Part shown: in pieces, positions 21,293-51,021 of the stretch | Layout of the letters: the number at the start of each line of letters is the position of its first letter | Numbering within the stretch: position 1 is the stretch's first letter | Assembly (NCBI RefSeq): GCF_058153355.1 | Contig: NZ_CM177019.1 | Length of the DNA stretch: 64,000 bases | Reading direction: 5' to 3' (one strand) | The notes under the pieces: model-generated | What the model saw: only the letters and a program-made list of their open reading frames with translations | Told to the model about the DNA's origin: nothing | Databases searched by the model: none | Translations under genes and position numbers: made by a program

Positions 21293-22488
21293 TCATAAGG
21301 CCATGATTACTTTATATTTTCCAATGTTATCAATATAATCCGCATACCACTGCATCATCTCCCTACGTCCTTCCAAATACAACGCATGGTTATACGTCCC
21401 ACGAATCGCATTCTTATCAACGTGAGCCAGCTGGGTTTCAATCCACGCTGTATTGAACCCTTCCTCATGCAAAATCGTACTCATCGTGTGGCGGAAACCA
21501 TGCCCCGTGACCCTCCCCGTGTATCCAATCCGCTTAAACACCTGATTAATACTCGCTTCGCTCATTGTTTTGCGAGGGTCATTCCTCCCAGGAAACACTA
21601 GGGGATACTGTCCAGACATCACTTTGAGTTGCTGTACGATTTCCAGCGCTTGGGTAGAGAGGGGCACCAGATGAGACCGTTTCATCTTCATACGCTCTGC
21701 AGGTATTTCCCACACCGCTTTTTCAAGATCAAACTCACTCCAGAAAGCACCTCGAAGCTCGCCGGTGCGAACTCCCGTAAGGATCAGCAGCCGAGCGGCA
21801 AGAACAACTAGCGGGCTTCCTGTATAGCTGGATAGGGCTTTAAAGAAGTCTGGTAACTCTTCAACAGTCAGGAAGGGATATGTTTCGATTCATGCCCTGA
21901 CATCGCGCTGGTTATATCCGCGGCAGGATTGTATTCCGCACGACCAGTAACTATGGCGTAACGAAAGACTTCGCTGCAGCGCTGGCGAACCTTTTTGGCC
22001 TTCTCTGTCGCGCCACGGCTTTCCATTCGACGTAGCACATTAAGCAGAACCAGCGGTTTGATTTCATTCACCGGCAGTTGACCGATATAGGGGAAAATAT
22101 CTTTATTAAAGGCCTCCAGAATGTCAGAAGCATACCCTTCTGACCACCGGCTCACCTTCGTACCGTGCCATTCAAGCGCCACAGCCTGAAACGTATTATT
22201 GAGTTGCACATCGCGAACCAGCTTTTCTTCTTTCTTGGCGAAAGACGGATCGATGCCCTCGGCCAGCTTTTTCTTGGCTTCATCGCGTAGTGCCCTCGCT
22301 TGTACAAGGGACACTGCTGGATAGACACTAAAAGCCATACGCTTCTCTTTTCCATAGAAGCGATACTTCATCCGCCAGTATCTGGAACCAGGGGGAACAA
22401 CCTCAAGATACAAACCAGCACCATCCGCCAGCTTATAGGCTTTCTCTCTGGGTTTAGCAGCGTCTACCTGTCGTGCATTAAGCTTCAT
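21293..22488 (-). pseudogene. P4-type tyrosine integrase, disrupted (N-terminal and catalytic parts in different frames)
   Basis: N-terminal ORF 21868-22488 (DUF4102/SAM-like arm-binding) and C-terminal ORF 21293-21715 (HGFRHT, LAH, Y catalytic residues) separated by a frame break; adjacent to tRNA-Thr 3-prime end. Confidence 0.7.
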
Positions 22489-22650
22489 TGGGGCATCTCC
22501 CTGGACCGAACATAGAATCCCCCCACTAATGCCCCCAACTGCAACTTGATTTCGGTTGAGTCCAGTTGATAACAGGAGACAAGATACGAGCCAGAAACCA
22601 CAGTGTACGGGCTTTTAGTTGATTTCGGTAGACTTGGGAAGAGTTTGAAA

Positions 22651-22726
22651 TGGTGCCGATAATAGGAGTCGAACCTACGACCTTCGCATTACGAATGCGC
22701 TGCTCTACCAACTGAGCTATATCGGC
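22651..22726 (-). tRNA. thrW: tRNA-Thr (anticodon CGU)
   Basis: 76-nt cloverleaf GCCGATATAGCTCAGTTGGTAGAGCAGCGCATTCGTAATGCGAAGGTCGTAGGTTCGACTCCTATTATCGGCACCA read on minus strand; CCA end faces integrase. Confidence 0.9.
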
Positions 22727-31445: not shown

Positions 31446-32060
31446 TTACACAGCAACAAAAGCCATCCCGGTAAATATCCGTCGCGGATTGCCACGTTCA
31501 ATTTGATGATGGAACATTCGCCGCTGCGATTTCAGCGCCGCGCTATTTTCCTGTTGCTGTTGCTCCAGCTTCCAGGCAATCAGCAATCGCGCCAGCCGTT
31601 TGTTGGCATGTTGGCTGCGCTCTGACTGAACCTTCACACTAATACCGGATGCCAGATGCGTGGCGCGCACAGCCGAGTCGGTTTTATTGACATGTTGACC
31701 GCCCGGCCCCGACGAACGCAGCGTCTCATAATGGATCGCATCGGATTGCTCCTGCTCATCTGCAGTAAAACGCCCAATGCCCAGAAACCAGTTTTTGCGC
31801 CCATGATGAGGGCGATACGGACTCGGACAAATCCACTGGATAGTGCCACACCAGCTTTCGCTTAGTGCCCATGCGTTGTCGCCATCAAGTGAAACCAGCG
31901 CCGAACGCAGCGTGTCAGAGTAGCGACCCGTTTCTGTTTCCAGCACCGTTACCGCGACGTCTTGTCGGGTAGCTTCTTTAATCAACCTGTCCAGCGCCTT
32001 TTTCACTGCGAGACAACATTCTTCCGGTCCCTGAGCTGAGGAGAGTTGCAGCAAGATCAT
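31446..32060 (-). CDS. prfH: Peptide chain release factor homolog PrfH (GGQ motif), apparently intact
   Basis: Start moved to [19 protein letters not shown]; [13 protein letters not shown] motif; start overlaps stop of rtcB-like gene. Confidence 0.85.
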
Positions 32061-33196
32061 CCTTTTTTCCCTCCACTGTTTTTGAGCGTTAGCACCGGAC
32101 GCAGTCGCGCGACAGGAATAATTAACCCAGCCTGCACCAGACATTGCACCACGCTTTCAGCCGATTTATAAGCTTGTGGCGCTTCTTCAAAGATGAGTTG
32201 TTTATCGCGACAAATTACCCGGCTGCCAAGTTCAGTACGTGAGAGTTGCGTCGCCGTGTATTTCGCTGCCAGACGCCCTTTACACTCGGTGCGCCCCCAT
32301 TTACGCCCTGCCCCATGCGCCAGTGAGTGAAGCGTTTTTTCGTTCGCAACAGGTTTAACCAGCCAGGAGTAATCACCGCGTGAACCGGGAATAATCACCA
32401 GACCGTTGTCATCCGGCGTAGCCCCTTTACGGTGTAACCATCCTTGTTGATCGCCGATTCGACATGCGCTAACAAAGTTATGCGCCACATCCAGAACCGA
32501 ATTTCCGTTGGCCTTAACTTGTTGCATTATGCGCAAAGCGATCAGCTGGCGATTAATACGCGCAAACGCCAGCGCATCATCATGTTCCGCAATATAACTT
32601 AGCGCGTCGTCACTGCCTTCCGGCAAACCATGATGCGAAAACGAGGCAATATGCCGCTGTAAAATAGACTGCCCTAAACCACGCGAGCCGCTATGGACCA
32701 GCAGTTGCAGATGCTGCGCATCCAGACCTGACAGTGCAAACAGTTCAGCGTCGATAATTTGATCAACTTGTTGCAGTTCTGCGAAGTGGTTTCCGCCACC
32801 GATAGAGCCAAGCGCGCAGCGCCACGGATGCTGTGCAAACGCTGACGGCAGGTTTTCCTCCAGCCAGCTTTCTTCAGCAACGTCATCCAGCACAGATAAT
32901 CGCTTTTCAAACTTATCGGCGTTGTATTTACGCGCGAGAATATCTGTTTGCCATAGCGCCATGCCGCAGCCGATATCATTGCCGACCAGTGCCGGGTAAA
33001 AACGGCCTACGGAGAAGAACGCTGCGCCAATCGGATAGCCGCGTCCGGGGTGTAAATCTGGCATCCCTACTACGCGTTGCATGTCGGGTAAATTTGCCGA
33101 GGTGTGTAATTGTTGGATCGCTGAACTCTCGATCCACAGGTCATCAGATGCGATGGTAAATACCGCATCGGATAAGGGACGAATATATTTGCCCAT
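32057..33196 (-). CDS. RtcB-family RNA ligase paired with PrfH (release factor H-coupled RtcB)
   Basis: 379 aa; RtcB metal-binding pattern ([36 protein letters not shown]); translationally coupled to prfH. Confidence 0.85.
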
Positions 33197-33513
33197 GTAT
33201 CATTCCATTTATACTCGTCATACTTCAAGTTGCATGTACTGCGACTGCGTTCGTTCACCCCAGTCACTTACTTTAGTAAGCTCCTGGGGATTCACTCGCT
33301 TGTCGCCTTCCTGCAACTCGAATTATTTAGAGTATATAAATATAAAAATCAGGAAATGGCAGACGAATCCAGGGCAAGAAAAAAAGAATTAATCCTGGAA
33401 AGGTCTGCAAAGAGTCATTGATAAAGGATTTTTCATGATTTACCTCCTTGCAGTTTGTGGAATAAGAAAACGCGCACATATTAGGCGGGCGTTATTTTCA
33501 TTGCAAGCTGGAT

Positions 33514-33966
33514 TTAGTGTTGCGGTTTATATCGCATATGAAAATTAGTAAACCACGCTCCCCGGCATTCAACGCGCTGCTGCTTAACTGTCTGAAAACC
33601 ATAACGTTCAAAAAAGGGTTTTGCGGTTATGCTGGCGTCCACCGTAAGTTCGGATTCAGACTTAATCAAAGGTTTTAACAAAGCGCTGGCAACCCCACGG
33701 CGAGTATATTCAGGGTCAACAAATAACATATCGATATAATGCTCAATGCAGGTAATAAAGCCGACCAGTTGTGTATTAATCACCGCAACCCGCACTTGTG
33801 ATTTCGCGAGTTTCTCTTTCCATCGATGTTCATCAATCTGCGCCCAGGCGGCAATTTGTTGTGGTGAATAATGCTGACTGGCGGTCATCGTAACCGCTCT
33901 AATAAAAATAGCGCATAGTTGCTGAAAATCGCCAGGCTGATAGTTCCTTATTTGTATATTATTCAT
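33514..33966 (-). CDS. yafP: GNAT-family acetyltransferase YafP
   Basis: 150 aa [21 protein letters not shown].. matching E. coli YafP; start overlaps dinB stop. Confidence 0.9.
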
Positions 33967-35018
33967 AATCCCAGCACCAGTTGTCTTTCCATTTGCGGAT
34001 CCAGCAACGTCACATGCAGCCCCACCAGTCGCACACCGCGCCCGCCACGGCGTTCATCCCAGGTTTTACGCGCAGTGGCGATCAAGTCAGCTTTATTCAG
34101 CCGCGGCCAGACGTGTTCCTGGGTGGTTTGCTGAAAATCGTCGAACTTTAATTTCACCCCCTGGCGGGCAATCAGTAAATCAGGTTTTACCTTTGCCAGA
34201 CGACGCTCCAGTTCAGGGTAAAGCCGCTCGATGATCGCTTCACATTCAGACCAGTGATGAATATCTTCCGCCATGGTGCGTTCTACACCGACGGATTTTC
34301 GCAACCTTTCGCTGTTAACGTCGCGCTCGTCAATGCCCTGACTACGCTCCCATAAAATGCGGCCAAATTTGCCAAAGCGTTTAAGCAGAGTTACCAGATC
34401 ACACTTTTGTACATCGCCGCAGGTCCGCAGCCCCATCGCTTCCAGTTTTGCTGCCGAGACTTTGCCGACGCCGGGAATTTTTGCCAGCGGTAAGGTTTGC
34501 AGAAATGCCGGAACTTCTGCCGGCGTAATCACAAACTGACCGTTGGGTTTATTCATGTCTGAGGCGATTTTGGCGAGAAACTTGACCGGCGCAACGCCCG
34601 CAGACGCCGTCAGTTGCAGCTCGTTGAAGATCGTCTGGCGGATTTCCTGAGCGATAAGGGTCGCAGAGCCGTGGCAATGGACACTATCGGTGACGTCGAG
34701 ATAGGCTTCATCCAGTGACAGCGGCTCAATACGCGATGTGTAGCGAGAGAAGATTTCGCGGATATGATTTGACGCTTCTTTGTAGGCGTCAAAGCGCCCT
34801 GGAAGCAAGGTGAGATGCGGACACAGTTTGAGCGCCATGCCGGTTGGCATTGCGCTACGCACGCCAAATTTACGCGCGGGATAATTGGCGGTGCTGATCA
34901 CCCCCCGGCGTTCGCGGCTGCCGCCAATAGCAATAGGGATATCGCGCAGGGCGGGATTGTCGCGCATCTCCACCGCGGCGAAAAAGCAGTCCATATCCAC
35001 ATGAATGATTTTACGCAT
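33963..35018 (-). CDS. dinB: DNA polymerase IV
   Basis: 351 aa [33 protein letters not shown].. Y-family polymerase. Confidence 0.95.
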
Positions 35019-35022
35019 TGCT

Positions 35023-35038
35023 CACCTCTCAACACTGG
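35023..35038 (-). promoter_or_regulatory. LexA (SOS) box of dinB
   Basis: CTGGTAAAGTATACAG (CTG-N10-CAG) immediately upstream of dinB start. Confidence 0.6.
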
Positions 35039-35088
35039 TAAAGTATACAGTGATTTCAGAGTTTGAGAAATGCGTAAAGATTCAGCAT

Positions 35089-41372: not shown

Positions 41373-42881
<1,509 letters not shown>

Positions 42882-42987
42882 CATGCCTGCAATCTGGGAA
42901 ACCGGGGTAGAAAAAAACTTGCAGGCCATAACAGTATCTACGGGTCCGCACCTGTTTTTATGCGTCTGCCCGTTTGTAGGCCCGAAC

Positions 42988-48849: not shown

Positions 48850-49042
48850 GTTGGATCCTTACCGGTAAATCGTGCCGGTTAAAAGCGGCGTGAAGTTGGA
48901 GATTCTTAAGTTCCGTAAACCGGGCGCCAGACACCGGATGCAGCCTGCATACGGGCACAAACATAAAAATATGTGCGAACTCGTAGATACTGTTATGGCC
49001 TGCAAGTTTTTTTCTACCCCGGTTTCCCAGATTGCAGGCATG

Positions 49043-50269
<1,227 letters not shown>

Positions 50270-50307
50270 TGATAAGCGTAGCGCATCAGGCAATCTGGCA
50301 CCAGACA

Positions 50308-51021
50308 TCACGCCGCATCACTGTCGGCATCGGGTACGCCAAACTGGCTAATCATGGTGAACGGCACTTCGCCTACACCGGCAACGTTAAGCACCGGAGA
50401 GCTGCCGTCGAGCGGGATGCGCACATCTTCCACTTCGCCGGAGACTTCAATCGGTACTTCTTCTTCCCCGGTATTGGTCACCACCGAGACGTCGTAATCG
50501 CCCGGCGGGATGCCGTAATCCGCCGGGTTAATCGAGAAATCCACTTGGCCTGGCCCAACCGACGAACTCCCTTCCGGGATCAGCGAGACGGTGTAGTCAT
50601 CGCCCGCAGCATCGGTAAAGTGGAGATCGGCGGTGGTACAGGCGTCGTCCAGCGTGGCGCGACCGTTAATGGTCTGGTCACTCACCTGCAAGGCGGTGGT
50701 CTGCACCATAATGTCGTCGCCCACCAGGTTGCCGAGCGCCATCACCTGAATGTTGCTCATCAGCACCGCGTTGGTATTGGCCTGCACGCTCATCTCTTCC
50801 ATCATCGCCACCTGCGCCATCGACGAAAGCTGGTCGATATATTCGGTGGCATCGGTCGGGTCGGTCGGGTCCTGGTTTTGGATCTCAGCGACAAACAGCG
50901 TCAGGAAAGTATCGACGGGCGAGCTATCGCTGCTGCTTGTCGTGTCGCTGGCTGCCACATTATTGCTTTCCGCCGTGGCGGTCGGTTGCGGCGATTGCGC
51001 ATTCAGCGCCAGGGTATTCAT
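50308..51021 (-). CDS. lfgD: FlgD-like hook capping/assembly protein
   Basis: 237 aa; FlgD-type motif FLTLFVAEIQNQDPTDPTD. Confidence 0.8.
   Translation of the reverse strand: MNTLALNAQSPQPTATAESNNVAASDTTSSSDSSPVDTFLTLFVAEIQNQDPTDPTDATEYIDQLSSMAQVAMMEEMSVQANTNAVLMSNIQVMALGNLVGDDIMVQTTALQVSDQTINGRATLDDACTTADLHFTDAAGDDYTVSLIPEGSSSVGPGQVDFSINPADYGIPPGDYDVSVVTNTGEEEVPIEVSGEVEDVRIPLDGSSPVLNVAGVGEVPFTMISQFGVPDADSDAA

Follow-up and report, generated by a model that had tools for sequence, protein, structure and literature searches.

The genome studied here is E. coli-like, and its lineage is seldom represented among complete assemblies. In the stretch of 64 kb that was analysed (hereafter the window), the dinB operon consists of two minus-strand genes, dinB and yafP, whose exact combined extent is 33514-35018. 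This is the arrangement put forward in the original prediction, namely yafP directly after dinB without the yafNO toxin-antitoxin (TA) pair. The features of the locus are listed below.

33514-33966, minus strand: yafP, GNAT-family N-acetyltransferase, 150 aa
33963-33969, minus strand: single-copy ATTATGA at the dinB stop/yafP start (ATGA at 33963-33966), from the sequence and junction comparisons
33963-35018, minus strand: dinB, DNA polymerase IV, 351 aa
35021-35030, minus strand: ribosome-binding region of dinB, GAGAGGTGAG, invariant relative to K-12 and two other Escherichia species
35035-35050, minus strand: LexA (SOS) box CTGTATACTTTACCAG, same as in K-12
35042-35069, minus strand: promoter-like site of dinB, TTCTCA, 16-nt spacer, TATACT (consensus scan, 9/12 matches)
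33460-33493, minus strand: weak hairpin followed by a U-rich run 3' of yafP, a low-confidence candidate for the operon end

Both reading frames are intact. Window DinB shares 99.7% amino acid identity with K-12 DinB over 351 aa, and window YafP shares 94% with its K-12 counterpart over 150 aa (tblastn). The DinB translation contains VDMDCFF and SLDEAYLD, which form the catalytic-site context, as well as a QLVLGL motif at the C-terminus, and matches the Pfam domains IMS, IMS_HHH, IMS_HHH_1 and IMS_C above their gathering scores. YafP matches Acetyltransf_10, Acetyltransf_7 and Acetyltransf_1. The dinB stop had been said to overlap the yafP start, and indeed the two codons share an ATGA (33966-33963, minus strand): the yafP ATG occupies 33966-33964 and the dinB TGA 33965-33963, with nothing in between. 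Searching the 64-kb window by tblastn gives no match to K-12 YafN or YafO (best E-values 0.2 and 3.3). Nor do adjacent antitoxin-toxin genes of the YafN-YafO type II system occur within these 64 kb.

Upstream of dinB, 91 of 92 bases of the 5' flank are the same as in K-12. The SOS box, predicted to be intact, is the K-12 box CTGTATACTTTACCAG, and alignment finds it unchanged also in Escherichia sp. MOD1-EC7003 and E. whittamii. It is overlapped by the second hexamer of the promoter-like site, which resembles a -10 element. A single spacer base distinguishes the promoter-like region from that of K-12, and what is known of K-12 suggests that this site acts as the dinB promoter. In K-12, the dinB promoter has an additional, established RpoS input. 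No terminator is detected by the terminator scan on the coding strand from the dinB promoter to the end of yafP. The hairpin 3' of yafP is missed by the same scan; its RNA fold reaches -16.1 kcal/mol over 81 nt (z = -1.4). A promoter-like match at 33987-33958 was considered for yafP and discarded: its position across the start codon of yafP precludes a role in expressing this gene, and its score of 9/12 to the consensus is a level also reached in shuffled sequence. The putative yafP terminator is closely followed by a 15-codon ORF, MKNPLSMTLCRPFQD (33389-33449, minus strand), whose ATG at 33436 has a strong Shine-Dalgarno sequence, AAGGAGGT, 5 nt ahead of it.

The RefSeq annotation of K-12 MG1655 (NC_000913.3, b0231-b0234) gives the order dinB, yafN, yafO, yafP. 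The four-gene K-12 operon assumed in the original prediction is thereby borne out, and both yafN and yafO do stand between dinB and yafP in MG1655, a configuration that the window does not have. The two operons are alike in promoter, LexA box, dinB, yafP and a chromosomal position adjoining lafU. When they are aligned, K-12 has an extra 759 bp located exactly at the dinB/yafP junction. This segment is made up of 752 bp plus a duplicated ATTATGA and contains an AT-rich leader of 51 bp, then yafN, yafO and a short spacer. A copy of ATTATGA stands at either end, one with the dinB stop, the other with the yafP start. As a consequence of this layout, yafP begins 9 nt past the yafO stop in K-12, whereas it overlaps dinB in the window. 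The lone ATTATGA of the window is the one-copy form of the 7-mer that flanks yafNO in K-12 and thus marks the empty insertion site. Base composition was set aside as a sign of foreign origin: the yafNO cassette has 41.8% G+C against 54% for dinB, but this is weak evidence since yafP, at 43%, is as low as the cassette.

The two-gene arrangement is already known. It was described in 2011 and is a common, ordinary allele. Gutierrez et al. 2011 (PMC3105422) found only dinB and yafP in 40% of sequenced strains and in 50% of the ECOR collection, and noted that the two genes are then 'always fused' through an ATGA overlap. Fraikin et al. 2020 (PMC7167474) regard dinB-yafP, for example in UTI89, as an undisturbed bicistronic operon, and yafNO as having been inserted into such an operon. 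A population survey of the site gives comparable proportions. Of 5,426 complete E. coli genomes, 5,416 possess the dinB-yafP locus; 2,847 carry the K-12 yafNO segment and 2,569 (~47%) have an uninterrupted junction, scored as an unbroken match to a 160-bp query across the dinB-yafP junction of the window. The two classes sum to 5,416 and cover all genomes with the locus, indicating that two-gene strains essentially never have yafNO elsewhere. Because the two-gene and four-gene forms are structural alleles, a chance test is not applicable to them. With the CFT073/UTI89 operon, the window shares all sequence hallmarks: DinB first, YafP second, the ATGA overlap, the LexA box in the controlling promoter and the absence of yafNO. 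The window allele differs from the CFT073/UTI89 type in its divergent sequence, though its DinB protein is 99.7% identical to that of K-12.

This divergence is considerable. The dinB-yafP segment of the window has ~94% nucleotide identity with almost every complete E. coli genome; the nearest ones are 98.2% identical over 18.7 kb. Identity to K-12 is 97.5% across frsA-gpt-pepD and only 94.2% across dinB-lafU. Between E. coli strains, nucleotide diversity reaches ~7% in dinB and ~10% in yafP, while the DinB protein is ~99% identical, and dinB-yafP alleles are mosaic between strains (window and loci L001-L022). The mosaic and diverse alleles suggest that they are old and that they recombine frequently.

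Several other features of the window deserve mention. Downstream of yafP, rtcB (379 aa) and prfH (~204 aa) are intact (31449-33196); at this place K-12 retains nothing but ykfJ and prfH, as pseudogene remnants. Two inverted copies of IS621, a member of the IS110 family, lie at 41626-42981 and 48943-50291 and are 98.8% identical over 1,356 bp. RefSeq names matching copies 'IS110-like element IS621 family transposase'. Their transposase genes are the following.

41852-42832, plus strand: IS621 transposase ORF, 326 aa
50072-49092, minus strand: IS621 transposase ORF, 326 aa

An intact Flag-2 cluster beside dinB was ruled out by comparison with strain MFDS1022581. At the place of this lateral-flagella cluster, window positions 48911-50310 hold the right-hand IS621 copy only, and MFDS1022581 has ~5.2 kb there (L007 37679-42888), encoding a rod-binding protein, FlgI, FlgH, FlgG, FlgF and FlgE. 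The Flag-2 gap in the window looks like an IS-associated deletion. MFDS1022581 also carries a DNA cytosine methyltransferase gene and a type II restriction endonuclease gene between flgA and flgM (L007 45376-48092); these methyltransferase and restriction genes are absent from the corresponding window position, 52612/52620. A tRNA-Thr(CGT) gene (22651-22726) adjoins a truncated integrase gene (region 21871-22726) whose 206-aa product has the arm-binding and central domains only. Of window positions 1-22700, only 53% is found at megablast level in any complete E. coli genome, and this part may be a variable island.

The order of events at the dinB/yafP junction has been viewed in two ways. Gutierrez et al. 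2011 (PMC3105422) proposed that the four-gene operon is ancestral for Escherichia and that the two-gene form is a deletion. Since this disagrees with the insertion described by Fraikin et al. 2020, relatives of E. coli were examined. YafP orthologues occur outside Escherichia too. A scan of GTDB with YafP relied on exact peptide patterns and returned 5 loci, missing E. fergusonii, E. albertii and the E. coli representative. Locus L012, a frameshift-ridden and uninformative assembly, was left aside. E. marmotae resembles the window: its dinB and yafP share an ATGA, with Flag-2 and rtcB-prfH as the neighbours on either side. In Citrobacter amalonaticus, the dinB TAA and the yafP ATG are 5 nt apart, and in Kluyvera (K. 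sichuanensis) they are 2 nt apart, both in a pepD-gpt-frsA-crl neighbourhood. Three further, divergent Enterobacteriaceae-like contigs likewise have yafP directly after dinB, and in all these relatives the pair occupies the chromosomal position it has in the window. Across the outgroups, stop and ATG either overlap as ATGA or are separated by 1-5 nt, and the neighbourhood is pepD-gpt-frsA-crl wherever the flank is sufficient. The L014 junction, GGGTTATAAATAATATGCAA, is colinear with that of the window, GGATTATGAATAATATACAA, and differs from it by point changes only, which displace the stop and the start codon. A LexA box of the form CTG-N10-CAG is found 32-35 nt upstream of dinB in all four taxa in which it was sought, that is E. 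marmotae, C. amalonaticus, Kluyvera and the metagenome contig L016. The Citrobacter and Kluyvera loci differ from the window in having YafP proteins with 57-58% identity to window YafP and in the lack of overlap between dinB and yafP. Nevertheless, they and E. marmotae resemble it in possessing a yafP orthologue right after dinB, behind a LexA box.

The adjacency of dinB and yafP, together with the LexA box in the outgroups, indicates that the two-gene form is older than Escherichia. By outgroup comparison, dinB-yafP is the original state, and yafNO in K-12 is a self-contained module inserted at the dinB/yafP junction. The simplest account of the 7-bp ATTATGA repeat is that it is a target-site duplication. 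This outcome is in line with Fraikin et al. 2020 and goes against the four-gene ancestry of Gutierrez et al. 2011. The increment over published work consists only of a larger population count and of the outgroup evidence for two-gene ancestry.

How would the two-gene operon work? LexA would repress the dinB promoter until DNA damage lifts the repression, and one mRNA from this promoter would then span both dinB and yafP. Ribosomes ending on the dinB UGA would re-initiate in place on the yafP AUG, within the shared AUGA. In overlapping bacterial genes, such a stop/start overlap is linked to termination-reinitiation coupling. The yafP AUG is not preceded by a Shine-Dalgarno sequence at a suitable distance; the sole purine run (GGGA) ends 3 nt upstream, which is too close. 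The AUGA overlap and the want of a well-spaced Shine-Dalgarno therefore favour coupling, and YafP is most likely made by termination-reinitiation coupled to dinB translation. The term 'translational frameshifting', applied to yafP by Gutierrez et al. 2011 (PMC3105422), is rejected here because yafP has its own AUG and coupling is simpler. It had also been anticipated that yafP would be SOS-induced in this genome without intervening TA genes. Such induction is to be expected since the regulatory sequence is the same as in K-12, and this expectation draws support from the unchanged LexA box and from an experiment with CFT073. This strain was chosen by Gutierrez et al. 2011 (PMC3105422) for its two-gene form, and in it mitomycin C induces a YafP-YFP fusion.

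It appears, with a probability of roughly 85%, that the window carries the common yafNO-free allele as a LexA-controlled, translationally coupled bicistron, and that this is the original form of which K-12 is a yafNO-bearing insertion derivative.

A possible, though clearly less probable, history is that yafNO was once present in the window lineage and was secondarily lost, recombination or slippage between the ATTATGA (ATGA) repeats having deleted it precisely and restored the overlap. The 7-bp direct repeat around the cassette could mediate such a deletion. The cassette is moreover not confined to E. coli proper. The four-gene form is seen in E. whittamii, in SCPM-O-B-8794 (a GTDB species representative labelled E. 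coli) and, according to Gutierrez et al. 2011 (PMC3105422), in E. fergusonii. In the short metagenome contig L013 (positions 1-41), a yafO-like end (AFRMRF, then the stop codon) lies 15 nt upstream of a yafP whose product is ~70% identical to K-12 YafP; the contig ends 38 bp upstream of yafP, so that the yafO-like end is visible and the dinB junction falls outside it. This end suggests that the four-gene form also exists in a quite divergent lineage. The occurrence of four genes outside E. coli proper implies that the insertion is old, and hence that the window lineage could have lost yafNO.

In favour of an insertion, the cassette has also diverged less than its flanks. Between K-12 and E. 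whittamii the divergence is 2.0% in the cassette versus 6.3-7.1% in the flanks (Fisher p = 1e-6), and between K-12 and 09A19CPO009 it is 2.0% versus 4.2-5.6%. For SCPM-O-B-8794 (L004) the corresponding values, 3.7% and 4.7-6.8%, are not significantly different (p = 0.095). That the cassette has changed less could, however, be due to constraint instead of age.

Within E. coli, the cassette has evidently moved in or out of existing haplotypes. The four-gene strain 09A19CPO009 is identical to two-gene O25b:H4 at all informative sites from dinB position 786 to yafP position 273, the two-gene strains STEC388 and Ec40743 have K-12-like flanks, and trees of the flanks from seven mainstream E. coli loci do not separate the two forms. 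The matching of flank haplotypes with and without the cassette means that precise gain or loss has taken place more than once in E. coli; these haplotypes, like the unclustered trees, are what secondary loss would produce. Microhomology-mediated deletion is also known at the locus. Escherichia sp. E1V33 (L003 5676-6003) has a third operon form, dinB-yafN-yafP, in which yafO has been deleted between TTAT microhomologies. An orphan antitoxin gene remains, along with a yafO stub of 10 codons, the TGA of which overlaps the yafP ATG.

Against secondary loss in the window lineage stands the absence of the cassette from E. marmotae and from all non-Escherichia relatives examined, which indicates that four genes are not the deep ancestral state. 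The nearest relative fetched, MFDS1022581 (98.2% identical), also has two genes, and the dinB-yafP allele of the window differs by ~6% from the alleles common in E. coli, two-gene and four-gene alike. The window sequence itself fits a junction that was never interrupted and one that was precisely excised alike.

It is doubtful that yafNO is gained and lost at ATTATGA in a directed manner, with the repeat as a target-site duplication, instead of through rare slippage or ordinary homologous recombination. If this were true, the window would represent an empty attachment site in an ancient SOS bicistron. Relocation of yafNO to a part of the genome beyond the window is very improbable. Inspection covered 64 kb of the genome, and a few E. 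coli genomes do have two yafNO places (maximum 2 per genome), but there is no yafNO trace within the window, and the sum of the two classes (2,847 + 2,569 = 5,416) leaves essentially no two-gene strain with a cassette elsewhere. An assembly or reading artefact, in which a collapse or misjoin removed the cassette, can be dismissed, as 2,569 complete genomes, along with other Escherichia species, have a junction identical in every base, and both the dinB and yafP frames are intact.

If the window indeed holds the original, coupled bicistron, YafP would be expected only alongside DinB (Pol IV) in two-gene strains. YafP activity is harmful without Pol IV (Gutierrez et al. 2011, PMC3105422), and its confinement to cells making Pol IV would fit the published idea that Pol IV counteracts cytotoxic lesions that YafP helps to create. 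The two-gene-first order also bears on how chromosomal TA modules settle in existing operons. A parallel is relA-mazEF-mazG, where a TA pair lies between two cistrons and is present or absent depending on the strain (Fraikin et al. 2020, PMC7167474). As with dinB-yafNO-yafP, the operon is undisturbed when the TA pair is absent, although other genes at another locus are concerned. Finally, K-12 is not representative of the species at dinB: in nearly half of E. coli, the locus is a tight dinB-yafP SOS bicistron with no TA pair.
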